From the NCBI GenBank assembly GCA_963816535.1, contig CAWFKW010000003.1, forward strand, positions 845,489-909,488: 64,000 bases of DNA, given 5' to 3'. Shown piece after piece: positions 12,378 to 64,000 of this stretch. Position 1 is the first letter of the stretch. The number at the start of each line of letters is the position of its first letter. The notes beneath the pieces were generated by a model, which saw only the letters and a program-made list of their open reading frames with translations, was not told where the DNA came from and did not search any database. The DNA comes from an uncultured Ignavibacteria bacterium (lineage in GTDB: Bacteria; Bacteroidota; Ignavibacteria; Tepidaquicellales; OLB5). A program made the position numbers and the translations under genes.

Positions 12378-13184
12378 ATGAAATCCGCCATATTCGCAAT
12401 GCGGGCTCCTTCCAGCTTCACAGACGAACTGAAGGACGTTTACCAGAAATACTTCAGGCGCGGTTTCGAAATAGCGGTGATGATACATGTATTTATTATT
12501 GCCGCCTATATAGGGATCAATCAGCTGGTTAAACTCGCCGATGAACAGATAGATAAAACACAGCACAGGCAGGTAATAGATGTAAAACTAACCGACCTTG
12601 AACCGCCTCCCTCAGCAAACGAAGACGATACGCCGCCTCCGAAACTGGAAGAAGTGGTCGCGCCGCCTAAGGACCTCAGCGCCTTAACTCCGGAACCTGT
12701 GGCTAAAGAGAAAGCAGACCTTCAGACGATTAAATCACAGAAAGAACTGGAAGAGATAAGAACACCCGTATCAAGCACAGGCGATACGGGCAAATTTTCT
12801 TATACCGGAAACGTAAAAGTTGAGGAAAAGAAAATTGAAGAGAAGATGATTAAAGAAGATAAGGTTATTAAGGAAACAGAGAAGACAGTGTACCAATCTT
12901 TTGAAGTCGAGAAGCCTCCGGAGTGCGTGAATCTCGGACAGGTAAAAGCCTCAATGGAATATCCGCAGATTGCGCGTGATGCCGGCATCGAAGGCAGAAT
13001 TACGGTGAAAGTTCTGGTTAGTCCTGATGGCAGTGTTATTAAAGTCGGCTCAGTAGTAGGACCTGATGTTTTCGCTGATGAAGTAAGCCGGAAATCGATG
13101 GACCTTCAGTTTACTCCCGGCCTCCAAAACGGCAAACCTGTTAAAGTGTGGGTCACCGTTCCGTTTGTGTTTAAGCTGAAATAG
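12378..13184 (+). CDS. tonB: energy transducer TonB family protein
   Basis: N-terminal TM segment, Pro/Glu-rich linker, and the C-terminal TonB domain YPQIARDAGIEGRITVKVLVSPDGSV...KPVKVWVTVPFVFKLK. Confidence 0.85.
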   Translation: MKSAIFAMRAPSSFTDELKDVYQKYFRRGFEIAVMIHVFIIAAYIGINQLVKLADEQIDKTQHRQVIDVKLTDLEPPPSANEDDTPPPKLEEVVAPPKDLSALTPEPVAKEKADLQTIKSQKELEEIRTPVSSTGDTGKFSYTGNVKVEEKKIEEKMIKEDKVIKETEKTVYQSFEVEKPPECVNLGQVKASMEYPQIARDAGIEGRITVKVLVSPDGSVIKVGSVVGPDVFADEVSRKSMDLQFTPGLQNGKPVKVWVTVPFVFKLK

Positions 13185-24249: not shown

Positions 24250-24269
24250 TTTCTAACTTATGTTCGTTC

Positions 24270-24277
24270 CAAAAATA
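24270..24277 (-). promoter_or_regulatory. -7 box TATTTTTG (minus strand) for the ccoI operon
   Basis: CAAAAATA on the plus strand, 21 nt upstream of the ccoI ATG. Matches TAnnTTTG. Confidence 0.3.
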
Positions 24278-24299
24278 GCTTTTTGATTAAAATTACCAT

Positions 24300-24335
24300 A
24301 TGATAACTATCATTTTGAAACATGATATTTATCAT
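24300..24335. promoter_or_regulatory. two FNR/CRP-type boxes, ATGATA-AC-TATCAT (24300-24313) and ATGATA-TT-TATCAT (24322-24335)
   Basis: Perfect palindromes with the core TGAT-N4-ATCA, 22 bp apart centre to centre, just upstream of the ccoI -7 box. Confidence 0.45.
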
Positions 24336-24840
24336 ATTCCGGAAATAGCTAATAGCTGAAAAAACAATGATTCAATAAAAGAAGCGGCAGGCATTTGACC
24401 TGCCGCTAATATGAGGTAAAATGAGGATACAGGAGGAAAACTGGATATGCCCGGGTAATTCTTTTTAAAAACTGATCTAAAGCGACTGATTTGATCTGCT
24501 TTCATATGTACTGTAAAGCAAAAAACTGTATTGTCTCTCATCCTGAAAGTGAATGAAATCGCCGTTTGGCATAAACACCCAGCAGAAATCAGCTTTAACG
24601 CTCATGATTTTTGCGTTTATTTTTTCCTTAAGTAATTCGTTTTTCTTTTCCATTTTAGTATTAGATTTAATTAATGAATAACTTCTGCACAAAGTTATTT
24701 CTTTACCTTACGGCTGTTCTTACAGGAACATTACAAGCTCATCAGAATTATCGAAAGCAATACTTAATTCAAATAAAATTGCATATTTTCCATGATTCCA
24801 GGAAAAATAAATCAGATTAAATTAGGGTTTTTGCATAAAA

Positions 24841-27800
24841 ATGCCGGAATTTGTAATTCGATCAAGGATAACTCCTAAGAAAAGCCAGGGCAATGTTATT
24901 CAAAGAGCGCGGCTTATCAAAGAAATTGACGCCAACAGGCAAAAGAATCTTGTTCTTGTTTGCGCACCCGCAGGCTACGGCAAAACCACGCTTGTGCAGG
25001 AGTATCTTTCGGCATATTCAGTACCGTTCGCATGGTTCCATGTTTCAACCGAAGTCGGTAATTTTTACACATTCGTAGTTTATATAGTTCATGCTCTCAG
25101 GACGCTGGATAAGGACTTAGGCGCCAACACTCTTGAAGCCGTTGAATCCCTTAAACAATCAATGAATCTTGTAAAAGACCTTAAGAACAGCGTCACAATA
25201 GTTATCGGAACCCTGATAAATGATATCCTGAACTCTGCCAGCCCTGAAATTACGATCGTACTCGACGATCTTCACGAGGCGCAGGATACTGACTGGTTTA
25301 AGACCGCTTTCGATACGCTGCTGGATGACTTTCCACCAAATCTGCGCCTGATAATTACATCAAGGAATATCCCTGATTTTAATTTTGCCAAGCTTACCGC
25401 CAAGAGAAATATTCTTAACATTGATTCCAAAAAGCTGCACTTTTCAAGAAACGAGATAGATGAGCTGATGAATAATATATACTCGATAAAAAGCTCAGGG
25501 AACGATTCTGAAATACTTGAAAAAAGCCTGAACGGGTGGATCACAGGAATCCATCTTGTTTTACAGGCTTACGGAGAAAATTTCAGAACCGCAGACCTCA
25601 GTTCAGGCGACATATTCGAGTTCTTTGCTGGAGAGGTTTTTGCCGGCCTAAATGACGATCTCAAAAACTTTCTGCTTGATACATGTTACCTGGATAGCTT
25701 TACGCCCGATGATTGCGATATTATTCTGGGCACAAAGACAAGCAAACAAATAATCGATGAACTAATAAACCGGAATATATTTATTGAGTCAGCTTCATAT
25801 GTTTCTGAGAGCGGCAAGCGGACAAATACATACAGCTATCATAAGCTCTTCAAGGAATTTCTCTCATTAAAACTGCATGAATCCCGCGACGGGGCCGAAA
25901 TAAAAGAAACCCTCCGGAGGATATACAATTTTTACATATCGCGTAATGATCTTTCTTCGGCTCTGGGATTTTCGCTGTTCGCAAAGGACATTGAAACATC
26001 AACGGAGCTCATAAAAAAGGTGTTTGACCGTGAGTTTGAAGATAACCAGTTTGAAAAACTGTGGAAATGGATCTCGGAATTCCCTGATGAAATTATACAA
26101 GGCGATGCATCGCTGCTGTATTACAAAGGGTTATTGCTCCGTTTATACAGGGGCGATCTGGAAGGCGCGCTGGCGCATATGCAGAAGGGGGTAAATTTAA
26201 CAAACAGGTCGGCCGATAACAGGCTCTATATAGATATTAACATTCAAGCGGCTGAAACGCTGCGGCTGCTTGGCAAACCTAACGATTCATTAAGCGTACT
26301 TGAATCCGTTTCGGCGCTAAACCCGTCGCCCTCAGACAAAGCCAAAATTCTTTACTCGCTTGCTTATACACTGTACAGGATAGGCCCGGAAAAGTATAAG
26401 AGGATCGGCGAAATAATAGACGAAGGAGTAAAAATATGTTCTGAAAACGAACTGGATTCACAAATGTTAAATTTTTATAACCTGCTTGGACTCATTAATT
26501 CGCACAGGGGAGATATAATCAAGGGCATTCATTACTATGAACTGGCTTTGCTGAAAGAGAAGTATATACTCTCAAAAATGAAGCTGATGAACAATATCAT
26601 CCCTCTCTATGTTTGGTCAGGCAATTACGCCAGGGCAAAAGAACTTTTAGAAAAAGCTGAGACTATGAACAGCTTGTTCCCTTCCGTCATTTTAAAACGC
26701 CTGCTTTTGAGAACAAAAGCGTTGTTCTATTTCGAATTCGGGGATTACGAAACCGCAATCGCAGCTCTCGAAGAACTCATAAGAACCGATATAAAAAACA
26801 ACAACAACAGGTTTCTTTTCATTAATTATTTGTTCATAGGCGAGTGTTATTTCTTTCTTAATAAACCGGAGCTGGCGGGCAGATATTATGAAATAATGCT
26901 AGAAAATATTGACCCGGCCGACTCATATCAAAAACTCGAAAATGATCTTCACATCGCTATCCTGAAAAAACAAACAGGTGCAGACGATTCTGTTGAACCT
27001 GCGCTGATGAACGCGCTCAATTATTTTGAAGATAACAGTCTTGTATACGCCAGGGCGCAAGTTGAATTTCATTTGGCAGATTATTATTACAAAAAAGGGT
27101 TGAAGGATACCGCGCTTAAATTTTTGAAAGATTCACTTGAGGTTTCGGCGGCAAATCAATATGTATCTTATCTTGAACAGCTGTATCCGCTTTACAGGTA
27201 TCTGTTTGATTTCGCCGTATCGAATTATGTTAGCAGGGATTTCCTGAAGTCGGTCCTTCAGAACATTGCAGCAAAAGAAGAGTTTATTTGGATATCCGCC
27301 GCGTTCAGGAAAAGACTTGGCGAGACCATTGATCTGCTTTCAGATATCAGCTTCAAGGCGTTTGGCGGGGCTGATCTAAGCGTCCGCGGAAAACATGTGG
27401 ACGAGGACCGCTGGGTGCGCAAGAAAAGCAAGCTTATATTGGCGTACCTGCTTCTGAACCAGGGCGCAAAATTCACAAAAGATAAGATACTGGGCTTATT
27501 TTTCGGGGACCTGAATTCTGCAAGCGCTGAAAACGTATTTCACCAGGCGATAACCAACATCCGCAGCGCATTAAGATTTGAAGAAGATACAGGCGCCGAA
27601 ATAAGATCTAAAGAAAAAACCAAAGCCAAAAAACCGGCCTCAAAAAAAGAGAAGGAAGCCGCGGCGGGCCCGGAATATATTCTATATGAAGATAAAATAC
27701 TGCGACTTAATCCTGATTATGTTTATAAAGTCGACGCTGTTGAATTTAATGCGATCTATCATAAGATAAAATCGGCTGAAACAAGCCCCGAAGTTAAGAT

Positions 27801-28173
27801 GAGCCTGGGCGCTAAGGCGATGGGCTCATACAAAGGAGAACTGCTCGCGGGAAATTATGACGACTGGTGCGAGGAACTAAGAACAAATTATGCAAACAAA
27901 TTTGCAGAGCTATGTGAAGAAATGATCTCTTTGTATAAGAAAATGAATAAGCCCGATGAAATCATTGAATACGCTGAACGATTGCTGCAAGCGGATAGGC
28001 TTCATGAAGAAGCATACATTGACTTGATTGAAGCTTATGTTAACTCAGGAAAAGCAAATATGGCAAAGACCAAATTCTCACAGATGCTGAAAACCTATGA
28101 TGAAGAATACGGCGAAAAACCTCCGCGAAAAGTGATGGACAGAATCGGGCAGTTGCTGGATGGCAAAGAATAA
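24841..28173 (+). CDS. large STAND/MalT-like ATPase regulator with TPR-like repeats and a C-terminal winged-helix plus BTAD (SARP-type) module
   Basis: N-terminus RARLIKEIDANRQKNLVLVCAPAGYGKTTLVQEYL (MalT-like Walker A). C-terminus ...KKSKLILAYLLLNQGAKFTKDKILGLFF... followed by the BTAD-like DRLHEEAYIDLIEAYVNSGKANMAK. Confidence 0.8.
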   Translation: MPEFVIRSRITPKKSQGNVIQRARLIKEIDANRQKNLVLVCAPAGYGKTTLVQEYLSAYSVPFAWFHVSTEVGNFYTFVVYIVHALRTLDKDLGANTLEAVESLKQSMNLVKDLKNSVTIVIGTLINDILNSASPEITIVLDDLHEAQDTDWFKTAFDTLLDDFPPNLRLIITSRNIPDFNFAKLTAKRNILNIDSKKLHFSRNEIDELMNNIYSIKSSGNDSEILEKSLNGWITGIHLVLQAYGENFRTADLSSGDIFEFFAGEVFAGLNDDLKNFLLDTCYLDSFTPDDCDIILGTKTSKQIIDELINRNIFIESASYVSESGKRTNTYSYHKLFKEFLSLKLHESRDGAEIKETLRRIYNFYISRNDLSSALGFSLFAKDIETSTELIKKVFDREFEDNQFEKLWKWISEFPDEIIQGDASLLYYKGLLLRLYRGDLEGALAHMQKGVNLTNRSADNRLYIDINIQAAETLRLLGKPNDSLSVLESVSALNPSPSDKAKILYSLAYTLYRIGPEKYKRIGEIIDEGVKICSENELDSQMLNFYNLLGLINSHRGDIIKGIHYYELALLKEKYILSKMKLMNNIIPLYVWSGNYARAKELLEKAETMNSLFPSVILKRLLLRTKALFYFEFGDYETAIAALEELIRTDIKNNNNRFLFINYLFIGECYFFLNKPELAGRYYEIMLENIDPADSYQKLENDLHIAILKKQTGADDSVEPALMNALNYFEDNSLVYARAQVEFHLADYYYKKGLKDTALKFLKDSLEVSAANQYVSYLEQLYPLYRYLFDFAVSNYVSRDFLKSVLQNIAAKEEFIWISAAFRKRLGETIDLLSDISFKAFGGADLSVRGKHVDEDRWVRKKSKLILAYLLLNQGAKFTKDKILGLFFGDLNSASAENVFHQAITNIRSALRFEEDTGAEIRSKEKTKAKKPASKKEKEAAAGPEYILYEDKILRLNPDYVYKVDAVEFNAIYHKIKSAETSPEVKMSLGAKAMGSYKGELLAGNYDDWCEELRTNYANKFAELCEEMISLYKKMNKPDEIIEYAERLLQADRLHEEAYIDLIEAYVNSGKANMAKTKFSQMLKTYDEEYGEKPPRKVMDRIGQLLDGKE

Positions 28174-28341
28174 ACAATAAATAGCAAATAATAGATACTG
28201 TAACACTACCTCCTCCCATGAAATCAAATCTTTCAAATTAATTTACAACCTTCAACTTATTGTTAATTAATCACTTGTTAATTGCGTTTTAGTTGTTCCT
28301 CCCTGTAAGGATTGTGTAAGAAGCCCTGTCAGGAATAAAAA

Positions 28342-28349
28342 TAGATTTG
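28342..28349 (+). promoter_or_regulatory. -7 box TAGATTTG upstream of the OMP gene
   Basis: Matches TAnnTTTG and lies 59 nt upstream of the ATG at 28408. Confidence 0.3.
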
Positions 28350-28407
28350 TAGTGTAAGGAATTAGAAAACACAAACAAATCTAATCAAAAAGAAAGGGAA
28401 TACTAAA

Positions 28408-29169
28408 ATGAAATCAATTAACAGTTTTATCTCAATAGCAGCTTTAATCGTTTCAATGGTTATATCATCTTCTTTATTCGCTCAGGATGATATCAATAAA
28501 GTTCTTGCACAGCTTGATACCAAAAGTTTCCAGCCGTTAACGGATGCTTTCAGTTCCGACATAAACTCAGGATTATATCATTCAGCAAAGGTAAACAAAT
28601 CTTTCAGCTTATACCTGGGTGTCAAAGCCTCCACAACAGGAATAGTTGAGGGCCCTTCGAACTTAAAGATCTCAAGCATGCCTTTTGCCGTTCCGCAGTT
28701 AACCCTCGGCTCGGTATTAGGAACAGATGTGACGCTGCGCTTCATGCCAAATATCACAATTGGCAAATACGGTTCAGTTAATACATTTGGATTTGCAGTA
28801 CGTCACAGCATCTCTCAATATGTAAAGAAAGCGCCGATTGATGCTGCGGTTCAGTTTGCTTATCAGAAATTTAGCGTTTCGGATACAAAAGATAACAACG
28901 CCGTTAACTCCGGTTCAATTGCCGCTAACCTGCAGTTCAGCAAAGAACTGAGCATATTTACATTCTACGCGGGAGTGCAGTATGAACAAACAACGGCTAA
29001 TTATACATTCAGTTATGACGGATTATCGCAGAACATAAATATCCAAAATCAAAATAATTTAAGGGGTACCCTTGGGCTGAATATTAAGCTGGGACCGGTA
29101 AATTTAAACGGCGATTGCAGCCTCTCAAAAAGCTCTTCATTTTCCGCCGGATTTGGGTTTGCCTTCTGA
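28408..29169 (+). CDS. outer-membrane beta-barrel protein (hypothetical)
   Basis: Signal peptide, alternating beta-strand pattern, and a C-terminal ...SAGFGFAF ending in an aromatic residue. Confidence 0.7.
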   Translation: MKSINSFISIAALIVSMVISSSLFAQDDINKVLAQLDTKSFQPLTDAFSSDINSGLYHSAKVNKSFSLYLGVKASTTGIVEGPSNLKISSMPFAVPQLTLGSVLGTDVTLRFMPNITIGKYGSVNTFGFAVRHSISQYVKKAPIDAAVQFAYQKFSVSDTKDNNAVNSGSIAANLQFSKELSIFTFYAGVQYEQTTANYTFSYDGLSQNINIQNQNNLRGTLGLNIKLGPVNLNGDCSLSKSSSFSAGFGFAF

Positions 29170-53341: not shown

Positions 53342-55873
53342 ATGAATAAATTTCTTAAAACTTTTCTTGGTATCGCGGTAATAATTATCCCTTTAGCCGT
53401 GCTATTCTTGTTCATTTTTAACGGCATGTCGAAGAAGTCTTTTTACCCCGTTCAGGGCGAAACAACGGTACAGGGCCTGAACTCGCCGGTAAAGATCTAT
53501 TTTGACGATTACGCCGTGCCGCATATATTCGCTGAAAACGAAAGAGACATGTATTTTACGATGGGCTACATGCATGCTCAGGACAGGCTATGGCAGATGG
53601 ACATTACCCGCCGTGTTGCAGAAGGAAGGCTTGCCGAAATCATGGGCGGCGGCGTATTGGAATTTGATAAGCTTTTCAGAACAATAGGAATTAATAAGTT
53701 TGCTTACCGATGGTATGAAAACATAAGCCCGAAGAGCAAAGAAATACTAGCTTACTATACAGACGGCGTAAATAAATTTATTGATACCCATTACAAAAAT
53801 CTGCCTGTTGAGTTTGACGCGCTGAATTATAAACCCGAACCATGGAAGCCCCAGCAGAGCCTTATGATAGCAAGGCTTATGGGATGGGACCTTAACATTG
53901 CCTGGTATACCGATTATGTTCTGGGCGAGATAGTTAATAAAGTCGGCCTTGAAAAAGCCGGCGAGATATTCCCTGACACAACGTTTTCGCTTTTCAAAAG
54001 ACCGATTGACACTTTAGCCGTTGAAGACACATCAAAAAGCGTCTCCGAAAATTCAGCGCCGGTTCTCAGGCTTCGGCAAACCGCGGCGCTCGGGCAGGGA
54101 TTTTTTGATTCATACCAGAATTACCGTTCGTATTTTAATATCAACTGCTCTCATACTGGCAGCAACGCGTGGGTAATATCCGGCGCGAAATCTTTAACAG
54201 GTAAACCCATACTTGCAAATGACCCCCATCTCGGTTTTCAGGCCCCTTCAAAATGGTACGAACTGGATATGAATAGCGGACAAACCGCCGTGAGAGGAAT
54301 GTCAATAGCAGGCGTTCCCGGAATTGTGATCGGCAATAACCGATTCATCAGCTGGGGCATAACCAACCTGATGAACGACGACAATGATTTTATAATTCTT
54401 CAGAAAGACTCGGTGAACGCCAATAAATATTATTACAAAAACCAGCCTTACACGCTCGACTCGGTTGTTGAGAAGATCGGCGTAAAAGATTCTGTTGAGG
54501 CGGATTACACGGTTAAGATGACTAAAATAGGGCCCGTTATATCAGGGCTTAATGAAAGAGGGTTTGCCGGTTACGGAAATCCGGATAAAGAAAACGCTTA
54601 CAAAGATAAACTAATGACCTTCAGGTGGACGGGCTTTGAATATTCAGACGAGGTTAACACTTTTTATAAATTAGATAATGCAAGAACGTGGGATGAATTC
54701 AAGGAAGGGCTGAAAGATTTCAGCGTTCCCGCTTCGAACTTTGTCTATGCAGATGTAGGCGGAAACATTGGCTACCACGCTGCGGGTAAAATACCGGAAA
54801 GAAGAACCCCGAATAATACAAGCTACATTTTCCCGTCATCAGGCGAACTTGACTGGGACGGCTTTGTTGATTTTGACAGGCTGCCAAACGATTACAATCC
54901 AAAAGAAGGTTACATAGCGAGCGCCAATACAAACCCGTTCGATATACTCAAAACTGAGCCGAAGAACAGGTATTATATTGGGTATCTGTGGGAACCATCC
55001 TCAAGATATGATAAAATAAAGAACTGGCTTGACGGCAAGTCAAAGCTTGATATTGATGAGTTCCAGCTTATGCAGATGAACTATGAATCGCCTTATGCAA
55101 AAGAAATTGGCGTGTACATTGAAGAGGCTTATAAGAACTACAGCGGAAACGACAACGATATTAAATGGTGCATTGAAAGATTTAAGAACTGGGACGGAGA
55201 GATGAAGCCTTCGAACCCTCTGGGCTCGGTATATAACGCTTTCTTCACCTACCTGCTGCGCAACACTTACCTTGACCAGCTTGGCGACAAAGTATTCTAT
55301 GATTTTCTTATCGTCCAGAATATTCCCTATAGGGCGACGCTTAACCTTCTGAGGAACGGAAAATCGATCTGGTTCGATAATATTAACACCGCGGCTGTTG
55401 AAAAAAGGAACGATATAATCAGAAAAAGCCTGCAGGACGCGTTGGTATTTCTGAGAACAAAGTTTTCTAACCAAGACATAAACACCTGGGACTGGGGGGA
55501 GATACATAAAGCAAAATTCCGCCACCCGCTCGGGATTGTGCCGGCATTTGATAAGATATTCAACATCGGGCCGTTTGATGTAGGCGGCGACCAAACTACA
55601 ATAAACAACTCTGAATATAGCTTTAATGAAGTAATGAAAAACGGCGACTTCACGAATATACTTGGCCCATCGATGAGAATAATCGTAAGCATGGCCGACC
55701 CTGAGCGTTCGCTCTCGGTAAATACTACCGGCCAATCAGGGCAGCCGCTGCATCCGAATTACCAGGACCAGGCAAGGCTGTGGCAGTTTGGCGAATACAA
55801 GTATAACACAATGAGCCAATTAGAAATGATAGCTAAAGAGTATAAGCTACTGACTCTGCTTCCCGGAAATTAA
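53342..55873 (+). CDS. penicillin acylase family (Ntn hydrolase, S45)
   Basis: MGYMHAQDRLWQMD, and the nucleophile region GSNAWVISG. Confidence 0.9.
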   Translation: MNKFLKTFLGIAVIIIPLAVLFLFIFNGMSKKSFYPVQGETTVQGLNSPVKIYFDDYAVPHIFAENERDMYFTMGYMHAQDRLWQMDITRRVAEGRLAEIMGGGVLEFDKLFRTIGINKFAYRWYENISPKSKEILAYYTDGVNKFIDTHYKNLPVEFDALNYKPEPWKPQQSLMIARLMGWDLNIAWYTDYVLGEIVNKVGLEKAGEIFPDTTFSLFKRPIDTLAVEDTSKSVSENSAPVLRLRQTAALGQGFFDSYQNYRSYFNINCSHTGSNAWVISGAKSLTGKPILANDPHLGFQAPSKWYELDMNSGQTAVRGMSIAGVPGIVIGNNRFISWGITNLMNDDNDFIILQKDSVNANKYYYKNQPYTLDSVVEKIGVKDSVEADYTVKMTKIGPVISGLNERGFAGYGNPDKENAYKDKLMTFRWTGFEYSDEVNTFYKLDNARTWDEFKEGLKDFSVPASNFVYADVGGNIGYHAAGKIPERRTPNNTSYIFPSSGELDWDGFVDFDRLPNDYNPKEGYIASANTNPFDILKTEPKNRYYIGYLWEPSSRYDKIKNWLDGKSKLDIDEFQLMQMNYESPYAKEIGVYIEEAYKNYSGNDNDIKWCIERFKNWDGEMKPSNPLGSVYNAFFTYLLRNTYLDQLGDKVFYDFLIVQNIPYRATLNLLRNGKSIWFDNINTAAVEKRNDIIRKSLQDALVFLRTKFSNQDINTWDWGEIHKAKFRHPLGIVPAFDKIFNIGPFDVGGDQTTINNSEYSFNEVMKNGDFTNILGPSMRIIVSMADPERSLSVNTTGQSGQPLHPNYQDQARLWQFGEYKYNTMSQLEMIAKEYKLLTLLPGN

Positions 55874-55874
55874 A

Positions 55875-56690
55875 ATGACTCCGGACACATCAGAATTCAA
55901 AACCCGTCCCAAAAAATCGCTTGGACAGAATTACCTGAAGGACGATAACATTTGCAGGAACATCGTTAGATCATTTGAAATCGGCTATAAGGATTATGTT
56001 CTTGAAATCGGCCCCGGCCGCGGAGCCATTACAAAATATATACTTGAAAAGACAGATAACGTGGTTGCCGTTGAACTGGATAAGATTAACTGCGCATTGT
56101 TAAAGGAACAATTTCCCAGCCTGAAGCTGCTTAGTAATGACTTTTTGAAAATCGATTTAGAAAATATCAGGAAATCTCAATTCGAAAATCTCAATTCGAA
56201 ACTCCGGATTCTCGGCAATATCCCGTATAATATTACCACCGAGATAATATTCAAGCTTATTGATAACAGAACTCTGATAAAAGACGCTCAAATAATGGTC
56301 CAGGAAGAAGTAGCGCAAAGACTTGTCGCTTCGCCAAATTCGAAAGAATACGGGATACCCTCAGTGTTTGTTCAGATCTTTACTAAGCCCAAACTAATAT
56401 TTAAAGTATCAAGAAATTGTTTTTATCCAAAGCCCCGGGTTGATTCACGGATTATTCATTTTGATTTCGATAATAAGCTGCAGGATAAAATTAAAGACAT
56501 AGATTTCTTTAAGAAGTTTGTAAAAGCGGCATTTGGCAACCGCCGCAAGACGCTTAGAAACTCGTTAAAGAAGCTGGAACTGAATCTTGGCGCCGTTGAT
56601 TTTGATTTCGGCAGGCGCGCAGAAAGCTTATCGATATATGAATTCATAGAATTGAGTAATAGATTGATACCTTACCCCGTCACTTCGTGA
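55875..56690 (+). CDS. rsmA: 16S rRNA (adenine1518/1519-N6)-dimethyltransferase
   Basis: PKKSLGQNYLKDDNICRNIV, EIGPGRGAIT and GNIPYNITT. Confidence 0.95.
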   Translation: MTPDTSEFKTRPKKSLGQNYLKDDNICRNIVRSFEIGYKDYVLEIGPGRGAITKYILEKTDNVVAVELDKINCALLKEQFPSLKLLSNDFLKIDLENIRKSQFENLNSKLRILGNIPYNITTEIIFKLIDNRTLIKDAQIMVQEEVAQRLVASPNSKEYGIPSVFVQIFTKPKLIFKVSRNCFYPKPRVDSRIIHFDFDNKLQDKIKDIDFFKKFVKAAFGNRRKTLRNSLKKLELNLGAVDFDFGRRAESLSIYEFIELSNRLIPYPVTS

Positions 56691-56692
56691 CA

Positions 56693-56750
56693 CCCCTCTC
56701 CATATGGAGAGGGGAAGCTCGCTTTGGCGCGCAGGGGTGAGGTATATAAG
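56693..56750. repeat. REP-like hairpin CCCCTCTCC-ATAT-GGAGAGGGG plus a downstream CAGGGGTGAGG tail
   Basis: The stem occupies 56693-56701 / 56706-56714 and begins 3 nt after the rsmA stop codon. Confidence 0.8.
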
Positions 56751-56763
56751 CTTTTTGGGCTTT

Positions 56764-56815
56764 AACCTGTAACTTGCAACCTGTAACTTGCAATCAGGAG
56801 GCAGTAACTTGCAAC
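56764..56815. repeat. heptamer-periodic microarray (AACCTGTAACTTGC x2, then AATCAGGAGGCAGTAACTTGCAAC)
   Basis: Read directly from the sequence, between rsmA and mfd. Confidence 0.8.
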
Positions 56816-56848
56816 CCATGTGGCGCCTGAGAGACCCATGATTGTGAT

Positions 56849-59800
56849 TTGATAGAATTAGCGAACAAAATATTTTCATCGCGTGAATTTAACGAGCTGA
56901 GAAATTCAGCAGGGAAAGACTGTTTCCTCACAGGCGTAAGCGGCTCATTTAACGCATTTATTGTATCACACTTATACCTTAACTCTAACAGGAAGATAGT
57001 TTATTGCTCCGCTGAGGCTCAAAAGCTCTTCAAACTTAAGGATGACCTGAACTTTATCATTGGAGATGAAGCAGCGTCAGTGTATTTAGACAAATTTGAT
57101 GAGGAATATGAAGGCGACATCACTCCCCTTTCAACAACGCTTAAACGGCTTTCAACAGATGACGGTTATATAATCCTGCTGGACCCGCCGGTGTTTCACA
57201 AACCCATCATCGGCGAGAGCGCCTTCAAGAGCAAGATCATAAACATCAAAAAGGGAGACGCGCTCAATTTTGACGAATTGATCTCACGGCTGCGGGTATT
57301 TAACTTCGCCCGCAAACAGGTTGTTGAGGAGGAAAACGATTATGCGGTTCGGGGCGGGATACTTGATATATTTCCTGAGAATCTTTCACAGCCGGTGAGG
57401 ATAGAGTTCTACGGAAACATAATTGAATCTATAAGGGAATTTGACGCGGGCACACAGCGTTCCATCGCGCAAATTGACGCTGTCGAAATTCTTCCTTCGC
57501 TCGATGAATTCGAAAACATACCTTCCGAAACCGCTAAGCTGATGGATTATATAGGCAAAGATGCGCTGCTGCTTCTTGATGAGCCGGACCTGATAAAGAA
57601 CGATCATGAAGATATCTTTCAGGAACTTCTGAAATTTCCAACGTCGTTTTTCTCAGGATTTTCGCTTAATAAATCGGAATCTGTTCAGGGTCTGAACGCA
57701 ATAAGGGAAATTGTTTTCAATTCAAAGCCACAGCCGCCGTTCAATTCAAATACAAAATTACTTTTTGAAAACCTGGAAGGACTCGCCCGGAAGTCTTATC
57801 AAATTTATATCACATGCACCGACGATTACCAGTCAAAACGCTTCAAAGAGCTTGTAGACGACCATGATGAAGACGGGGCCCTTGCTGATATTATTTATCT
57901 TGATAACTCATTTCATGAAGGGTTTCTTCTGCCTGAGGAGAACATTGCCGTTTATACCGAGCATGGGATTTATGACAGGTTCTACAGAACGGCAAAACGA
58001 AAGAGAAGATTTGCGGGCATCACTTTCAAAGACCTCGGCAAAGTCAACAACGGCGATTTCATGGTGCACCGCGATTTTGGAATAGGCAAATACGCAGGCA
58101 TGAGAAAAGTTAAGACCGGCGGAATCGAGCATGAAGCCGTAAAGCTGCTGTATAAAGATAACGACGTGGTGTTTGTCAACCTGAACTCGCTTCACCTGAT
58201 AAAAAAATATTCAGCGCAGGAAGGCTATGTGCCCAAGCTTAACAAGCTGGGAGGATATGAATGGGAAAAAACAAAACAGCGCACAAAGAAAAAGATACAG
58301 GATATTGCCCGCGATCTTATTCTGCTTTATTCAAAACGAAAAAAGCAAAAAGGATTTAGGTTCTCTGCCGATTCAGTATGGCAAAAAGAGCTGGAAGCAA
58401 GCTTTATTTACGAGGATACGCCGGACCAGGTAACTGCGACCAAAGAAGTTAAGAGCGACATGGAGGCTGAGATCCCAATGGACAGGCTTGTTTGCGGCGA
58501 TGTTGGCTTTGGGAAAACCGAGGTCGCGGTTCGGGCAGCGTTCAAATGCGTATTGGATAACAAGCAGGCTGCCGTACTGGTGCCAACAACTATTCTAGCC
58601 GAGCAGCATTATAACACATTTAAAGACAGGCTCTCAAACTGGGCGGTTGAAGTTGAACACATATCAAGATTTAAAAGCCGTAAAGAACAAACCGAAGTTC
58701 TCAAAAGGCTTGAAGACGGGAAACTTAACATTATTATTGGCACGCACCGCCTGCTATCAAAAGATGTTAAGTTCAGGGACCTTGGCTTATTAATTATTGA
58801 CGAAGAACAGCGTTTCGGAGTGAAGTCAAAGGAAAAACTCAAGTTCATGCGGGAGAACGTTGATGTATTAACGCTTACCGCGACTCCTATCCCCCGCACT
58901 TTGAATTTTTCTCTGCTTGGCGCAAGAGACCTATCGATAATCAACACGCCGCCTAAAAACCGCCAGCCGATACATACCGAGATAATCAATTTTGATAAGA
59001 AAACTATCGGCAATGCAGTGCTAAGAGAACTTCAGCGCGGAGGGCAGGTGTATTTGGTTAACGACAGAATCGCAAAACTGGAAGAACTTGCATTTATGAT
59101 AGAAGAGCTTGTTCCGTTCGCAAAAGTTGCAATAGCGCACGGACAAATGACGGCGCCGCAGCTTGAAAAAGTTATGATGAAGTTCCTCGAAAAGAAATTT
59201 AACGTGCTGGTATGCACTAAGATCATTGAATCAGGGCTTGATATACCCACAGTAAATACAATTATTATCAATCGCGCAGATCATTTCGGGCTTGCTGAAT
59301 TATATCAGTTACGCGGACGCGTTGGGCGCTCGAACACTAAATCATACGCATTCTTAATAACGCCGCCGCAAAGCGTGTTAACAAAACAGGCTGTCCGGAG
59401 GCTCCATGCGCTTGAGGAATTTTCGGATCTGGGCTCAGGGATGAATCTTGCGCTCCGCGACCTGGAAATACGGGGCGCGGGAAATTTGCTCGGCGGCGAG
59501 CAAAGCGGCTTTATCTCTGAAATGGGATTCGATATGTACATGCAGATACTTGACGAAGCGGTCACCGAGCTGAAAGAATCAGAATTGGGGATGGCGCTTA
59601 CCGATATAATTCCCAAAGCTCCGGCAAGCAAAAAGAAGATAAAAGAAGTTACAATTGAATCCGATGTGGCTATGCTGATTCCTGATTATTATGTTGACGA
59701 TGAAAACACAAGACTGGAAGTTTACCAGAGGCTCGCGAATGTTACTTCGCTTGAAGAACTTGATTCGATAAAAGCTGAACTGCTTGACAGGTTCGGGAAA

Positions 59801-60136
59801 TTCCCTGATGAAACCACTTCGCTCTTTGATCATATCACTATTAAAGTTCTTTGCGGCGAAAAAGGGTTCAGTAAAATTTCAATTCATGCAAATATTCTTG
59901 AGCTGCATATGAATCCTGATAACGAAGAAATCTTCACAAGCGGGTATTTTGAAAAACTGGTTAACTTTATTTCTAATCCCCCCTTTTCTTCTCAAAGGGG
60001 GGCAGGGGGGTTCACATCGCAGCTGGTACAAACAAAATTCTCTCTTTATGTAAAATTCCGCCTGCCCCTCGCAGATCATTCATTGCAAAAGCTTGATGAA
60101 GTAATGAAAATTGTAGAGGAGCTACATCGGTTATAA
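56849..60136 (+). CDS. mfd: transcription-repair coupling factor
   Basis: 1095 aa with a UvrB-homology N-terminus, CarD/RID (FMVHRDFGIGKYAG), SF2 helicase motifs (GDVGFGKTEV, DEEQRFG, QLRGRVGRS) and a TRCF C-terminus. TTG start. Confidence 0.95.
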   Translation: MIELANKIFSSREFNELRNSAGKDCFLTGVSGSFNAFIVSHLYLNSNRKIVYCSAEAQKLFKLKDDLNFIIGDEAASVYLDKFDEEYEGDITPLSTTLKRLSTDDGYIILLDPPVFHKPIIGESAFKSKIINIKKGDALNFDELISRLRVFNFARKQVVEEENDYAVRGGILDIFPENLSQPVRIEFYGNIIESIREFDAGTQRSIAQIDAVEILPSLDEFENIPSETAKLMDYIGKDALLLLDEPDLIKNDHEDIFQELLKFPTSFFSGFSLNKSESVQGLNAIREIVFNSKPQPPFNSNTKLLFENLEGLARKSYQIYITCTDDYQSKRFKELVDDHDEDGALADIIYLDNSFHEGFLLPEENIAVYTEHGIYDRFYRTAKRKRRFAGITFKDLGKVNNGDFMVHRDFGIGKYAGMRKVKTGGIEHEAVKLLYKDNDVVFVNLNSLHLIKKYSAQEGYVPKLNKLGGYEWEKTKQRTKKKIQDIARDLILLYSKRKKQKGFRFSADSVWQKELEASFIYEDTPDQVTATKEVKSDMEAEIPMDRLVCGDVGFGKTEVAVRAAFKCVLDNKQAAVLVPTTILAEQHYNTFKDRLSNWAVEVEHISRFKSRKEQTEVLKRLEDGKLNIIIGTHRLLSKDVKFRDLGLLIIDEEQRFGVKSKEKLKFMRENVDVLTLTATPIPRTLNFSLLGARDLSIINTPPKNRQPIHTEIINFDKKTIGNAVLRELQRGGQVYLVNDRIAKLEELAFMIEELVPFAKVAIAHGQMTAPQLEKVMMKFLEKKFNVLVCTKIIESGLDIPTVNTIIINRADHFGLAELYQLRGRVGRSNTKSYAFLITPPQSVLTKQAVRRLHALEEFSDLGSGMNLALRDLEIRGAGNLLGGEQSGFISEMGFDMYMQILDEAVTELKESELGMALTDIIPKAPASKKKIKEVTIESDVAMLIPDYYVDDENTRLEVYQRLANVTSLEELDSIKAELLDRFGKFPDETTSLFDHITIKVLCGEKGFSKISIHANILELHMNPDNEEIFTSGYFEKLVNFISNPPFSSQRGAGGFTSQLVQTKFSLYVKFRLPLADHSLQKLDEVMKIVEELHRL

Positions 60137-60240
60137 GGAAAAAACAGCCACAAAGTTGAAGCGAAGCGAAAACCCGCCTTTGGAGGGACACACGAAGAAA
60201 ATAAAACAGTAATTTTATATTCCTAATTAAACCTCACTAA

Positions 60241-60268
60241 TGTCATTCCCGCGAAGGCGGGAATCCAG
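60241..60268. repeat. REP-like hairpin GTCATTCCCGC-GAAG-GCGGGAATCCAG
   Basis: 8-bp stem 60245-60252 / 60257-60264. It is the inverse-orientation counterpart of the 13545-13573 element. Confidence 0.7.
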
Positions 60269-60450
60269 ATCACAATTTCAGATAGCAAAATTATTTTGCC
60301 CCTACAAGAAATTAATGCAACGAAGACACTAATTTACACAAACATTTAACGCAGAGTAACAAAGAAATATAATATTTAATGGAAGCAATTAATTTACTAA
60401 AAGGTTAAATGATAGTAATTGTTTGTCAATCAGAACCACTAAAAAGTAAA

Positions 60451-63400
60451 TTATTCATTAATCATACTTGAAATCCTATTTTTAAGTTCATTATCAGTTA
60501 GTGAATTATTTATTTCGTTAATTTTTTCTTTAATCTTATTAGAAGATTCATTATTCTGATATTGTCTCAAATATGCATCTACTTCATGAATCCATTTATC
60601 TGCATTTACATTAATTATTTCTTCCTTAATGCCGAACTCAATAAAGAAATCAATTTTAACTTGTTGATTTGAATTTAGTTGGTCCAAAAGCTCATCAACA
60701 ATTTCATTTCGGTCGGAACTTTTCATAAATTGCAGATTCATCATAACAAACTCTGTATCTGGCCCTTTCTTCAAATCAATTTTGATTTGATCCCAGACAT
60801 AATTAAGAGCTCTTTCTTTCGCTTCATTTGATAAATTATCAAATAAGGCAAATCTAAATTTTGATAACTCTGCTTTAAAGGTTTCAGTGTCAATATCTTT
60901 AAGACTTCTGAGAATAGGACTTAGTAATGTATCCTTATCGTTTTGAGTTATCCTAGAATCTCTATTCATTAACTCCATGCTGTAAGATAAAAATGCGTCC
61001 CTATCTAAGGATGTTGCATTACCCCAGAAATCTTTATTCAAAAATTGCTCTAAAGCATTCTTAATTATTGGTTTATTATCGTCAATTCTATCCACTTTAT
61101 CTATTAGCACTTCATTGACAAACCTTACAATATATTTTGCATATAATTCTTTGGATTTCCAATAACTTTCAAATAAATATTTAAGAATATCTTTGCTTTG
61201 GAAATTATATATTTTTTCAATAAGTTCGTAAATAATTCCTTTCCACTTTTCTTCAGTATTTCCCAAGTCTGAAGCCTCATTTGATGCTGCGGAATCGAAC
61301 ATTGTTGAATTGAAGAGTGGGAATTTACCAAATTTAGAACGTTTGAACTCCTTTTCATACAATTCTGGATCTACTTGTATGGCTTCAGTTAATTTCTTTC
61401 TTATGATTTTTCGTTTATCTTCTTCTAAAACTTTATATAATTCAACAAAACCACTGAACCATTCTGCATCTATATCATACTCATTTTCCCATTTTGAACT
61501 TTCTTTAATTAAAGTATCAAATACTTGATTTGCAACTTCTTTACTAATATTAACATTAGAATTTAAAACCCAATTCAGAACTACATTCGGAGGATAAAGA
61601 GGGTCTTCTACATCCACTTTACTAAAATCATTCGTCAGACATTCAATTGATTTAGCAAACAGGTTATTGAGTATTTCTTTATCTGCTATTTCACTAAGTC
61701 TGGCAATTAAAAGCCCAACCGAATAGCTTGTTTTCGAAATTTCAGGAGTCAAACCATTTACTGCATTCCTTAATATTTTTTTGCTTTTTATTATTTCTGG
61801 AATATTTCCCTCTGTGGGTAAAAGCCATTCCCACAAACTCTCTAAGTAATCTTTACTTGATAAGTTAATTAATATCAATTTACTCAATAGTTCTCTATAA
61901 TGCTCAATTATTTCAATTCCTAAAATTGAAATATTTTCGTTTACTCCTTTGATATGAGGTTGAATTTTATTCCAATAGTTGGGAAGAGTATTATTTACAT
62001 CTAGAGTTACATTTGAAAATAAAGGAATTAACCTACTGTATATTATTCTTGCTACAGTTTTGAGTTTTTCGTAACTAATTTTTGGAATATCGCCTTTACC
62101 CAAACGCCAAATCGATGGGTTTATATTTTCCCCCAGCCCAAGTAAAACATCCGAAGGAATGGATTCAAATAAAGAGCCAATCATTACATCCAATCTAAAT
62201 TCAATTTTTTCATTAACGTTTTGTAAAGCACTAATAAGATTTTCTCTTAAAGTAAGGGGTGTCACTAAATTATTCAGTCTTATCTTAGTTTCAATTTCAA
62301 AATTTCCCAAAAACCCATCCTTTTCAATATTAATCTTTATTAAATCCAATGCGTTTTCCTCATCTTTTCTCATCAGTGAAGCAATAATTTTATCGAATAG
62401 TTCCGAACTTGCATTGCCAGAAAACGTAAAAAATAAATCTGCATTCTCATTTGTAATTCTATTGGTTGCATCAAGGAAATTTCTCAATCTGTAACCATCT
62501 GTTGGCTCATCAAGTATTTCTTCTAATTCTTTGTCATTCAAGAACTGACTATCAAAATCTAAATTCTTCCTGTATTGTTCTAGGTTGTTAAATGACCCGA
62601 TATTATTCAAAAAGTATTTATAAGCTTTAGGATAATAGTTTTGGATTATGAGGATTTTCAACAAAAACCCTAAATCCTTTGAAATTCTATCTTTTGGCAA
62701 TGACTGCATATCACCGTCTGCTTTTTCTAAATCTAACGCTAAATTATAACTAGCCACAAGATTATTTAGAATTTGCTTAGCCCTTCTCGGATTGTTCATA
62801 AATTTTGTAAATAAAATTGCTTGGAAGTTTGTTATATCAACTGAATTATTAATTCCAATTTTCTCTGCAAGGTCTTTAATGTAGTCTAACAAATACTCAG
62901 CATAAACTGGTCTCAAATAAATCTCGACATTGAATAATTTTCTCAAAAATTCATCCTCATCAATTACATCTTTCCCATCTTTTTCACCCATTCCTTTGCT
63001 GATATGGTTCTTTATTTTTTCATGATCGCATGGTATAAGATAAATACAATCATTAACCCCCAAAAAAGTACTAATCCCAGTTAATACTTCCAAAACTTTA
63101 GAACTTTGACACCTATCTAAATTGTCAATTATAAAAACTTTCCTATGGTCCTTTATTGAAGGGTGATTTATGGCTTGTTTAAACATATCTTCAAATTGTT
63201 CTGGTGAGTTGGGCTTTTCAGTGTCTTTAACTATAGTAGTGACTACGCCTTTACTTCTGATTGAAGTTATAACTGCAATAATTACAGGTAATATTGCTTT
63301 ACTTATTAGATCAATCCAGTCTTTGCATGCAAAACCAATCGGGGGGTAAAAATACTTAATTAAAAAAAGTCCAGTTAAAACCGGGATTAACCAGTAGAAA

Positions 63401-63822
63401 TTCTTACTAAATATTTTCCATGAAAATTTAGTAGTATATTGGGCTCCTTCATGTGTATTAATATATAACTTTTCATTGAATTTTAAATCATTGTTGAACC
63501 ATTCCTTGTCAATTCTCAACAATATTTGCCTTCGCAATGAATCAGCAGAATATTTCCAGACATCAAAATTCAAATATTTTATTTTCTTATTCTCTTTTTT
63601 ATCCAATTCCACACATAGTGCATTTACAATACCTGTTTTACCCGTTCCCCAACCTCCAAAAAGTCCAATGCAAAAAGGAGCAGGACATTCCTTAATGGTT
63701 TCCATTAATGCATTTATGTATCCGGAATGTTTAAAAATATCCTTTGGGTGTTCATCTTTTCCCCAATATGCATCAAACCTTGGTAAATCTCGTAAATATT
63801 TTAAGTGATTAGCCATAACCAA
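60451..63822 (-). CDS. KAP-family P-loop NTPase, 1123 aa, with TM helices inserted in the NTPase domain
   Basis: Walker A GLFGGWGTGKTG. Hydrophobic helices FYWLIPVLTGLFLIKYFY and ILPVIIAVITSI. Walker B-like VFIIDNLDRC. The long helical C-terminal region has no recognised domain. Confidence 0.85.
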   Translation of the reverse strand: MVMANHLKYLRDLPRFDAYWGKDEHPKDIFKHSGYINALMETIKECPAPFCIGLFGGWGTGKTGIVNALCVELDKKENKKIKYLNFDVWKYSADSLRRQILLRIDKEWFNNDLKFNEKLYINTHEGAQYTTKFSWKIFSKNFYWLIPVLTGLFLIKYFYPPIGFACKDWIDLISKAILPVIIAVITSIRSKGVVTTIVKDTEKPNSPEQFEDMFKQAINHPSIKDHRKVFIIDNLDRCQSSKVLEVLTGISTFLGVNDCIYLIPCDHEKIKNHISKGMGEKDGKDVIDEDEFLRKLFNVEIYLRPVYAEYLLDYIKDLAEKIGINNSVDITNFQAILFTKFMNNPRRAKQILNNLVASYNLALDLEKADGDMQSLPKDRISKDLGFLLKILIIQNYYPKAYKYFLNNIGSFNNLEQYRKNLDFDSQFLNDKELEEILDEPTDGYRLRNFLDATNRITNENADLFFTFSGNASSELFDKIIASLMRKDEENALDLIKINIEKDGFLGNFEIETKIRLNNLVTPLTLRENLISALQNVNEKIEFRLDVMIGSLFESIPSDVLLGLGENINPSIWRLGKGDIPKISYEKLKTVARIIYSRLIPLFSNVTLDVNNTLPNYWNKIQPHIKGVNENISILGIEIIEHYRELLSKLILINLSSKDYLESLWEWLLPTEGNIPEIIKSKKILRNAVNGLTPEISKTSYSVGLLIARLSEIADKEILNNLFAKSIECLTNDFSKVDVEDPLYPPNVVLNWVLNSNVNISKEVANQVFDTLIKESSKWENEYDIDAEWFSGFVELYKVLEEDKRKIIRKKLTEAIQVDPELYEKEFKRSKFGKFPLFNSTMFDSAASNEASDLGNTEEKWKGIIYELIEKIYNFQSKDILKYLFESYWKSKELYAKYIVRFVNEVLIDKVDRIDDNKPIIKNALEQFLNKDFWGNATSLDRDAFLSYSMELMNRDSRITQNDKDTLLSPILRSLKDIDTETFKAELSKFRFALFDNLSNEAKERALNYVWDQIKIDLKKGPDTEFVMMNLQFMKSSDRNEIVDELLDQLNSNQQVKIDFFIEFGIKEEIINVNADKWIHEVDAYLRQYQNNESSNKIKEKINEINNSLTDNELKNRISSMINE

Positions 63823-64000
63823 TTAATTAAAAAATTTGACTTCAGTTAACTTAAAAGTCTATTCAAAAAATGTATTATGTGAAGTCCGGGGTGTTGAAAT
63901 ATCAGCAGCTCGGGTTATCTAAATATATCATAACACAATAATTTTTACAAGCAAGAATAGTAGTCCAATACTTTCTAAATTAGATTGTTTATTGGTATTA

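Follow-up and report, generated by a model that had tools for sequence, protein, structure and literature searches.

From sequence analysis, structure prediction and comparison with recently described systems, we interpret, with moderate confidence, a single gene of an uncultured Ignavibacteria bacterium as a self-contained, horizontally acquired one-protein immune gene, the product of which would be anchored to the membrane by a hairpin lying within its nucleoside triphosphatase (NTPase) domain. The gene encodes a KAP-family NTPase and occupies 60451..63816 on the minus strand of a stretch of 64,000 nucleotides (GenBank assembly GCA_963816535.1, contig CAWFKW010000003.1, positions 845,489 to 909,488 of the forward strand), hereafter the window. 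An immune role as such is somewhat favoured by the sequence evidence and by the likeness to characterized KAP proteins. An output acting specifically on the membrane or on ions is a tentative proposal drawn from analogues, and one about which our doubts prevail.

The gene product has 1121 amino acids when counted from the ATG at 63816, with the stop codon at 60451-60453. If the TTG at 63822 is used, two codons upstream of the ATG and in frame with it, the product has 1123 amino acids, which was the length given in an earlier sequence-only reading of this DNA, made without database searches, that had seen a single open reading frame (ORF) here. The ORF list contains the same ORF as the only long one of 60200-64000, and public collections hold the 1121-amino-acid product, starting at the ATG, as an exact match on two contigs.

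The protein belongs to the KAP family: its sequence and model show all the features by which the family is defined, with membrane insertion being predicted. Residues 34-361 (62734..63717, minus strand) form a P-loop NTPase domain of the KAP family according to Pfam PF07693 and an AlphaFold2 model. The sequence-only reading had recognized the family from the Walker A motif, a Walker B motif reading VFIIDNLDRC and two helices inside the P-loop domain, all of which agree with the translation, the hydropathy and the model; it had also named the lack of a KAP profile match as a finding that would count against it, and the KAP_NTPase match is strong (106.8 bits, cut-off 20; E = 1.7e-30 over profile positions 3-292 of 293). 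Four relatives (P0002, P0004, P0007 and P0011) likewise exceed the PF07693 threshold. In the translation, Walker A reads GLFGGWGTGKTG (residues 51-62, including K60; 63631..63666, minus strand) and Walker B reads KVFIIDNLDRC (residues 226-236; 63109..63141, minus strand), and both consensus patterns, GxxGxGK[ST] and hhhhD, are intact in GGWGTGKTG and VFIIDNLDR, respectively. Across 99 members of the wider clade of long KAP NTPases to which the protein belongs, W56, G57, G59 and K60 of Walker A are invariant, as are D231, D234 and R235 of Walker B, and N232 is kept in 97; K293, F295 and N351 are invariant or nearly so. An NPRR motif at 62782..62793 (minus strand), of which P343 and R344 occur in 99/99 clade members, is a candidate arginine finger or sensor.

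Between the two Walker motifs lies a two-helix hydrophobic hairpin (residues ~133-186; 63259..63420, minus strand), recognized by Kyte-Doolittle hydropathy and in the model and predicted to be a membrane anchor. By Kyte-Doolittle analysis, each of the six full-length family members has two hydrophobic 19-mers in the stretch from Walker A to Walker B, and at least 72 of the 99 clade members show two such 19-mers at the hairpin position. In the AlphaFold2 model of residues 1-470, built on the 99-sequence alignment (predicted local distance difference test, pLDDT, 88.6; predicted TM-score, pTM, 0.79), the hairpin helices span residues 133-156 and 165-186 and are inserted between strands 121-124 and 196-199. 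The flanks of the hairpin are rich in Lys and Arg and the connecting loop has only ~10 residues, so that both hairpin ends, and hence both halves of the NTPase domain, fit the cytoplasmic side; we therefore predict a membrane-inserted hairpin with both NTPase halves facing the cytoplasm. Transmembrane helices inserted within the NTPase domain were reportedly described by Aravind and colleagues in 2004 as a feature of the KAP family. The closest solved folds to the NTPase model, as ranked by Foldseek, are RdrA, ORC/Cdc6 and RFC subunits, in that order. The hairpin loop (residues 157-167) is unusually conserved, with P159, G161, K165 and W167 invariant in the six-member family alignment, which may point to a function on the outer side or to contact within an oligomer.

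The remaining two thirds of the protein are helical. A region proximal to the NTPase domain (residues 367-550; 62167..62718, minus strand), delimited by hmmsearch and an exhaustive profile search, is followed by an orphan all-alpha solenoid (residues ~551-1121; 60454..62166, minus strand), delimited by the model and profile searches, which we regard as a putative sensor arm. In the full-length model, which has a mean pLDDT of 73.7 on a six-sequence alignment, most 10-residue blocks from residue ~480 to the end reach a pLDDT of 80-93 and consist of helices only, giving an alpha-solenoid. No Pfam, NCBIfam or PADLOC domain was found in the ~760 C-terminal residues beyond residue 361, in line with the sequence-only reading, which had recognized no domain in a long helical part. 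A Foldseek search of the full-length model against the PDB returned generic HEAT/ARM solenoids only, with TM-scores of at most 0.23; these were karyopherins, CAND1, ribosome-biogenesis factors and Avs3. Against the viral library BFVD, a single match fell below E = 0.001, a KAP protein of a giant virus, and neither library yielded an assignable effector fold. A sequence search of the PDB gave only designed helical repeats at E values above 0.1, and hhalign comparison of five C-terminal segments detected no internal repeats (probabilities of at most 1.7%).

The C-terminal module is very rare. An exhaustive search of 1.84 billion cluster representatives with a profile built from residues 367-1121 retrieved 15 proteins at E <= 0.001. 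Just eight clusters, four with full-length proteins and four with fragments, carry the module at E <= 1e-10, and the other seven proteins align only to the first ~180 profile positions, corresponding to the helical region that is common to other long KAP proteins (P0007, P0126-P0131 and others). A scan of JGI metagenomes added one full-length member (L087), and a scan of the GTDB species genomes with the family alignment gave no relative. Searches of plasmids with tblastn gave no full-length relative, the matches covering the N-terminal part only. Within the family, identity is 41-54% in the N-terminal third and 27-33% in the solenoid, a contrast that suggests a sensor-like, fast-evolving solenoid. 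In the added metagenomic member (L087:9986-13273), the ORF stops at 13132 and the tblastn match runs on to 13273; its C-terminal end may contain a frameshift or a premature stop.

The composition of the gene and its surroundings points to a foreign origin. The four 1-kb intervals of 60001-64000 have 29.0-31.8% G+C, compared with 36.4-51.3% in the preceding 60 kb. Against all 3.8-kb intervals upstream of the island as background, the block 60200-64000 has 29.7% G+C versus 43.2% (sd 1.5, minimum 40.1; z = -8.7), and its tetranucleotide L1 distance is 0.485 versus a background maximum of 0.219. G+C at third codon positions (GC3) is 24.6% in the KAP gene and 44-51% in mfd, ksgA and the acylase gene upstream. 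The sharp A+T enrichment after mfd that the sequence-only reading had judged by eye is thus borne out by computation, and the similarity to the flanks that would have contradicted it is absent from G+C content, tetranucleotides and GC3 alike. Two further 1-kb intervals, 24001-25000 and 28001-29000, are also low in G+C (36.4% and 38.1%; the mean of the window is ~43%). The window contains neither tRNA genes nor Rfam families, and promoter and terminator scans remained at chance level.

The conserved flank of the island is mfd (56849..60136, plus strand), an ORF of 1095 amino acids with orthologues that are 64-96% identical, all of them in metagenome-assembled genomes (MAGs) of Ignavibacteria, which identifies the host as one of this group. 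A gene for a penicillin-acylase-like protein (843 aa), ksgA/rsmA (271 aa) and mfd (1095 aa), at 53342-60136, serve as a syntenic anchor; this order is kept in ~20 Ignavibacteria MAGs with protein identities of 55-69%. A KAP gene conserved beside mfd in all relatives would have argued for a core gene, as the sequence-only reading had pointed out, and among 80 Ignavibacteria mfd loci there is not one with a KAP relative. The commonest gene downstream of mfd in relatives encodes a ~545-aa SBBP propeller protein with a type IX secretion system (T9SS) sorting tail, and mfd of L011 precedes thioredoxin/TPR genes together with genes without a known function. In L016, a near-conspecific contig with 96% Mfd identity, homology stops ~21 nt past the mfd stop codon (~60157), and the cargo at the site is a different minus-strand ORF of at least 240 aa with 29% G+C, which has no Pfam or PADLOC match. 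This variation in what follows mfd means that the site is plastic and the KAP cargo strain-specific.

The other end of the island lies beyond the window. A Logan contig that bears the identical KAP protein, known to us from its gene sizes and Pfam marks only, has a 73-aa and a 114-aa gene upstream of the KAP gene, both in the same orientation as it and neither matching Pfam; beyond them stands a divergently oriented gene of 946 aa, marked by Tricorn_N and, more weakly, by PD40 and DPPIV_N. The spacer between mfd and the following gene, which encodes a 948-aa PD40/Omp85/peptidase-MA protein, is only 272 nt long in L002. The 946-aa gene is probably the orthologue of that gene, judging from its size and the common Pfam families; if so, ~5.8 kb has been inserted between mfd and the 946-aa gene, and L002 looks like the empty site. 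From composition and the Logan gene list, the A+T-rich inserted segment would run from 60137..64000 on to the equivalent of ~65900 in the coordinates of the window, ~5.8 kb in all. The segment shows the atypical composition, the absence at the site in relatives and the alternative content there that characterize genomic islands, and the KAP gene was most likely acquired horizontally from a foreign source. No integrase, transposase, relaxase or tRNA gene is visible in or near the segment, in the window and the Logan gene list.

A foreign composition and a variable site would also be expected of cargo that works for a mobile element and not for its host, which it might do by keeping competing plasmids or elements out or through a membrane addiction function. 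The N-terminal relatives encoded on haloarchaeal and other plasmids, and the plasmid-borne PifA (PMC13001434), are in keeping with this explanation. We nevertheless consider it very unlikely, in view of the missing mobility genes, of the chromosomal housekeeping contexts in which full-length relatives stand and of the lack of full-length matches on plasmids or phages.

The question of one gene or several is of greater weight for the reading as a one-protein immune gene. The sequence-only reading had suspected that partner genes might lie past 64000, and the two small co-oriented genes of the Logan contig are indeed found there, 182 nt (73 aa) and ~0.9 kb (114 aa) upstream of the KAP gene and within the inserted segment. 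By coordinate arithmetic from the 182-nt gap, the stop codon (TAA) of the 73-aa gene is at 63998..64000 (minus strand), the last nucleotides of the window. The KAP protein could accordingly be the large subunit of a multi-gene system, inactive or deregulated when alone, with the small genes encoding a regulator, an antitoxin-like inhibitor or an effector. Such an arrangement would find support in the position of the two Pfam-negative genes in the same segment and in the precedent of QatABCD, in which a KAP NTPase acts as part of an operon (PMC13279940). The comparison with other family members makes it an unlikely one, however: no small upstream gene is conserved among them, P0004 follows directly after a ribonucleotide reductase (RNR) gene, L001 and L086 differ from each other in having unrelated upstream genes, and L083 begins with the KAP gene. 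Moreover, the 182-nt gap contains a sigma-70-like sequence, a consensus match only, from which the KAP gene could be transcribed by its own promoter.

The search for a conserved partner gene ended in its rejection, as the neighbours on both sides differ in every readable context. P0004 lies between the RNR gene and a nitroreductase gene, P0006 adjoins tex, and P0005 is followed by an HNH nuclease gene matching a PADLOC model. Small genes of unknown function surround P0003, with a Schlafen/AlbA_2 gene 5 kb off; P0121 comes after a gene of unknown function that is unrelated to the one upstream of P0003, and the L087 member, in housekeeping surroundings, comes after an AAA_14/DUF4143 ATPase gene. 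The lack of any recurrent neighbour across seven family members in six readable contexts indicates that the unit is a single gene inserting at many different sites. Lower G+C than in the flanks recurs in the KAP genes of L082 and L084. Among the clade relatives, P0011 lies between a type IIG restriction-modification gene, which comes before it, and a Cas4-like nuclease gene. P0007 (1109 aa; L084:7550-11932) is wedged between ybaB and recR within the dnaX-ybaB-recR cluster, which is widely conserved; its G+C content is 33%, compared with 39-40% in the flanks. The tex gene beside P0006 (L082:3611-5756) is split into overlapping ORFs of 111 aa (Tex_N) and 620 aa (remaining domains), probably through a frameshift or an assembly error.

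The housekeeping or envelope neighbours in several of these contexts raise the question of whether the protein has an immune role at all. As a membrane-associated scaffold or regulatory NTPase, it could assist the assembly of an envelope or signalling complex, with its solenoid binding host proteins and its acquisition being due to chance. NTP-dependent complex assembly has been proposed for the animal protein Kidins220/ARMS, alpha-solenoids such as those of the Foldseek-matched karyopherins, CAND1 and ribosome-biogenesis factors are generic protein binders, and the failure to find an effector domain would be as expected. The sporadic single-copy distribution (about seven members among ~15 billion proteins), the foreign composition and the insertion site that differs in every genome, for example dnaX-ybaB-recR for the clade relative, fit poorly with such a function. 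The C-terminal part, in addition, evolves fast, and the KAP fusions described in PMC13552941 all protect against phage. A purely scaffolding role is for these reasons unlikely in our judgement, and we return to the one-protein immune gene for the comparison with known systems.

The nearest precedent for such a gene is EF_KAP. EF_KAP and three metagenomic ORFs, KAP NTPases with C-terminal regions of unknown nature, were tested in Enterococcus, and all four protect against phage (PMC13552941). Defence by EF_KAP needs the Walker B motif and the C-terminal region, was abolished by the D247A mutation and is not abortive infection (PMC13552941). Like the protein studied here, EF_KAP is a one-protein KAP NTPase with transmembrane helices and a large C-terminal region resembling nothing known, and it has a sporadic, island-like distribution. 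It differs, by description, which was the only basis of the comparison, in having 322 C-terminal residues versus ~760 here, a D-D instead of a D-N Walker B motif, and a serine recombinase, which was not seen near the KAP gene of the window. With Asn at position 232 in 97 of the 99 sequences, D-N-L-D-R is the typical form and a character of the clade, unlike the D-D that was mutated in EF_KAP. The protein fits the class of stand-alone, single-gene KAP fusions, by analogy with which it may confer phage resistance.

In its architecture, the protein has its best mechanistic analogue in Tmn of the YobI family, a resemblance that does not extend beyond architecture. Tmn carries a pair of transmembrane helices within the P-loop domain, possesses solenoid arms that are ARM/HEAT-like and forms a decamer in the membrane; it is a single-gene sensor, the arms of which sense RIIB of phage T2, leading to Mg2+ export and plasmolysis (PMC13001434). 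Both proteins, compared by description only, share the transmembrane pair in the P-loop domain, a helical proximal region, a long solenoid without detectable sequence repeats, a length of ~1100-1270 aa, the lack of a conserved operon and a variable C-terminal part. Membership of the Tmn family was rejected: the protein scores as KAP and has no match to PADLOC Tmn or Pfam YobI-ATPase (PF20693) at E <= 1, a test that presumes the presence of a Tmn model in PADLOC-DB 2.0.0, as the use of PADLOC in PMC13001434 implies. When a clade relative was compared with plasmids by BLAST, the matches were PifA, QatA and KAP proteins, none of them annotated as YobI or Tmn. Four clade relatives (P0017, P0027, P0051 and P0062) do pass the PF20693 threshold, with 29-35 bits (cut-off 27) and KAP scores of 76-97 bits. 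This suggests that the KAP and YobI/Tmn families are detectably related, and the dual matches mean that the transmembrane insertion of both may be inherited from a common ancestor. Proteins of haloarchaeal plasmids are among the long KAP NTPases that pass both the KAP_NTPase and the YobI-ATPase thresholds.

Other defence proteins resemble parts of the protein. PifA is the T7 exclusion protein of the F plasmid and a founding member of the KAP family. In the passages on PifA in PMC13001434 and PMC13552941, phage proteins trigger it to cause a lesion in membrane permeability, by which infection with T7 is aborted, and it is reported to have no transmembrane helices (PMC13001434). The protein shares the KAP NTPase fold with PifA and matches the PADLOC PifA model at E = 1.4e-11; we rejected membership, as the best stretch covers residues 50-106 only and the PifA profile has 720 positions and a different C-terminal part. 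QatA forms 7-8-mers, binds DNA and functions within the QatABCD operon (PMC13279940). Assignment to QatA was likewise discarded, with 48.5 bits against an NCBIfam cut-off of 600 and no adjacent qatB, qatC or qatD. In QatABCD, qatC is QueC-like and qatD is a TatD gene.

RdrA of RADAR (PDB 8hr8, 8fnu), a ring-forming defence ATPase that assembles as a heptamer, is the closest solved structure (Foldseek E = 1e-6, TM-score ~0.4 on the query), but it lacks a membrane hairpin, has other C-terminal domains and shares ~15% sequence identity. The likeness to RADAR is structural only, with no PADLOC match to RdrA and no adjacent RdrB deaminase gene, and RADAR membership was dismissed. The best PADLOC match is to PDC-S20 (E = 7.3e-17), a computational PADLOC candidate. 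Residues 27-430 align with positions 18-382 of its 464-position profile, which corresponds to the KAP domain and ~70 further residues; the profile has no solenoid, and the protein is more than twice its length. The relatives P0007 and P0011 cover positions 17-461 of PDC-S20. Avs proteins and other STAND NTPases (Avs3, PDB 8dgc) resemble the protein in their logic, in which an NTPase switch is coupled to a sensor made of helical repeats at the C-terminus; their NTPase family is different, and the protein studied here is predicted to be membrane-embedded. Only 33 residues precede its NTPase domain, leaving it without an N-terminal effector, and with a TM-score of 0.16 to Avs3 we do not count it among the STAND or Avs proteins. 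NACHT-like matches (NPHP3_N) are weak and occur only in relatives. In summary of these comparisons, the architecture and the probable role are known, and the novelty lies in the solenoid module, the D-N-L-D-R clade and Ignavibacteria as the host.

If the protein is a one-protein immune sensor, a mechanism may be proposed from its analogues. By analogy with RdrA, QatA and Tmn, ~7-10 subunits would assemble through their NTPase domains into a ring on the inner side of the membrane, with the NTPase halves and the solenoid all facing the cytoplasm. The fast-evolving solenoid arm would bind a protein of a phage or another mobile element, and binding would cause a change of nucleotide state that is passed on to the membrane hairpins. 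Infection could then be arrested by a change in ions or permeability, on the model of PifA or Tmn, or phage development could be blocked at the membrane while the cell survives, on the model of EF_KAP. An immune role is supported by the PADLOC matches to PDC-S20, QatA and PifA and by the clade relatives located beside restriction-modification, Cas4-like and HNH genes. The sequence-only reading had proposed a defence or abortive-infection module. Defence is a fair proposal in the light of the protective KAP fusions (PMC13552941) and the relatives beside defence genes, but abortive infection is not established. Its remark that KAP NTPases are almost without a known mechanism has partly been overtaken by the papers on EF_KAP, QatA and Tmn, all from 2026.

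Several points weigh against an immune role or against its being fulfilled by a single protein. The main uncertainty concerns the upstream genes of 73 and 114 aa, which could be partners. Next, N232 replaces the second acidic residue of Walker B, the position mutated (D247A) in EF_KAP; with Asn there, hydrolysis may be slow or switch-like or may use D234. The PADLOC and NCBIfam matches are at the domain level only, no recognizable effector domain was found with Pfam, NCBIfam or PADLOC, and the full-length model was built on only six sequences. Phage records (tblastn) and viral contigs (scan) contain no full-length relative, and no other defence gene was seen nearby in the window. The region downstream of mfd holds ordinary secreted and propeller proteins in relatives and is plastic instead of being a recognized hotspot. 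The designation of the site as a defence hotspot, for which the SBBP/T9SS propeller and thioredoxin-TPR cargo of relatives gives no support, was accordingly dropped.

The protein belongs to a larger group. The clade of long KAP NTPases comprises at least 100 clusters of ~1000-1150 aa, which share the motifs W-G-x-G-K-[ST], D-N-L-D-R, K-[FL]-F-N and N-P-R and the two-helix hairpin inside the P-loop domain. In a more speculative and rather doubtful extension of the analogy, this clade might be a large and so far unrecognized one and the KAP counterpart of Tmn, made up of oligomeric membrane 'umbrella' sensors with hypervariable solenoid arms that translate the recognition of phage proteins into an ion or permeability response. 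With about seven sequences in ~15 billion proteins, the solenoid of the window would then rank as one of the rarest known sensor arms. Few phage defences are as poorly understood as the membrane-anchored NTPase immune sensors, of which only Tmn has a partial mechanism. KAP fusions were validated in 2026 in gut Firmicutes (PMC13552941), and Ignavibacteria are now added to the class if the immune role holds. With an intact NTPase, an internal hairpin and a confidently modelled orphan solenoid, the protein is a compact test case. It can help to answer the questions of how specificity is coded in fast-evolving arms, how an output is achieved without an enzymatic effector and whether the KAP and YobI/Tmn families are homologous. 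As a single-gene insertion at the plastic mfd site, it is also a gene for which standard defence finders would give a domain-level match only.

The intergenic region between mfd and the KAP gene contains a G+C-rich hairpin, GTCATTCCCGCGAAGGCGGGAATCCAG (60242..60268), which folds as predicted, with an 8-bp stem and a GAAG loop. Its core, ATTCCCGCGAAGGCGGGAAT at 60245-60264, occurs once in the window, with zero copies expected in shuffles, and the fold of the intergenic region is otherwise unremarkable (z = -1.0). The Logan contig on which this KAP gene recurs in identical form terminates exactly at the hairpin start, which suggests that the assembly broke there, at a repeat or at a junction that varies between strains. 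In 1.49 Mb of Ignavibacteria loci, about ten palindromes share the frame TCATTCC...GGAAT, among them one at the equivalent position in L016 and a near-identical copy elsewhere in L002 (L002:3413-3434). Palindromes of this low-copy family (TCATTCC-stem-loop-stem-GGAAT[GA]) also occur in L012, L046, L053 and L058. The sequence-only reading had described a repetitive extragenic palindrome (REP) hairpin at the island boundary. The hairpin is real and has similar palindromes in Ignavibacteria, but it is single-copy, and the compositional boundary (~60200-60300) and the homology boundary (~60157, 85 nt before the hairpin) bracket it instead of coinciding with it; 'REP-like' is a reasonable label that is plausible but weakly supported. 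In the mfd-downstream spacer of L016 (L016:1860-2140), we observed a variant hairpin, GTCATTCCGGGCTTGACCCGGAATC, together with a palindromic unit based on CCCATCTGAGTC...GACTCAGATG that is present three times and has the look of a small array of miniature inverted-repeat transposable elements (MITEs) or REP units.

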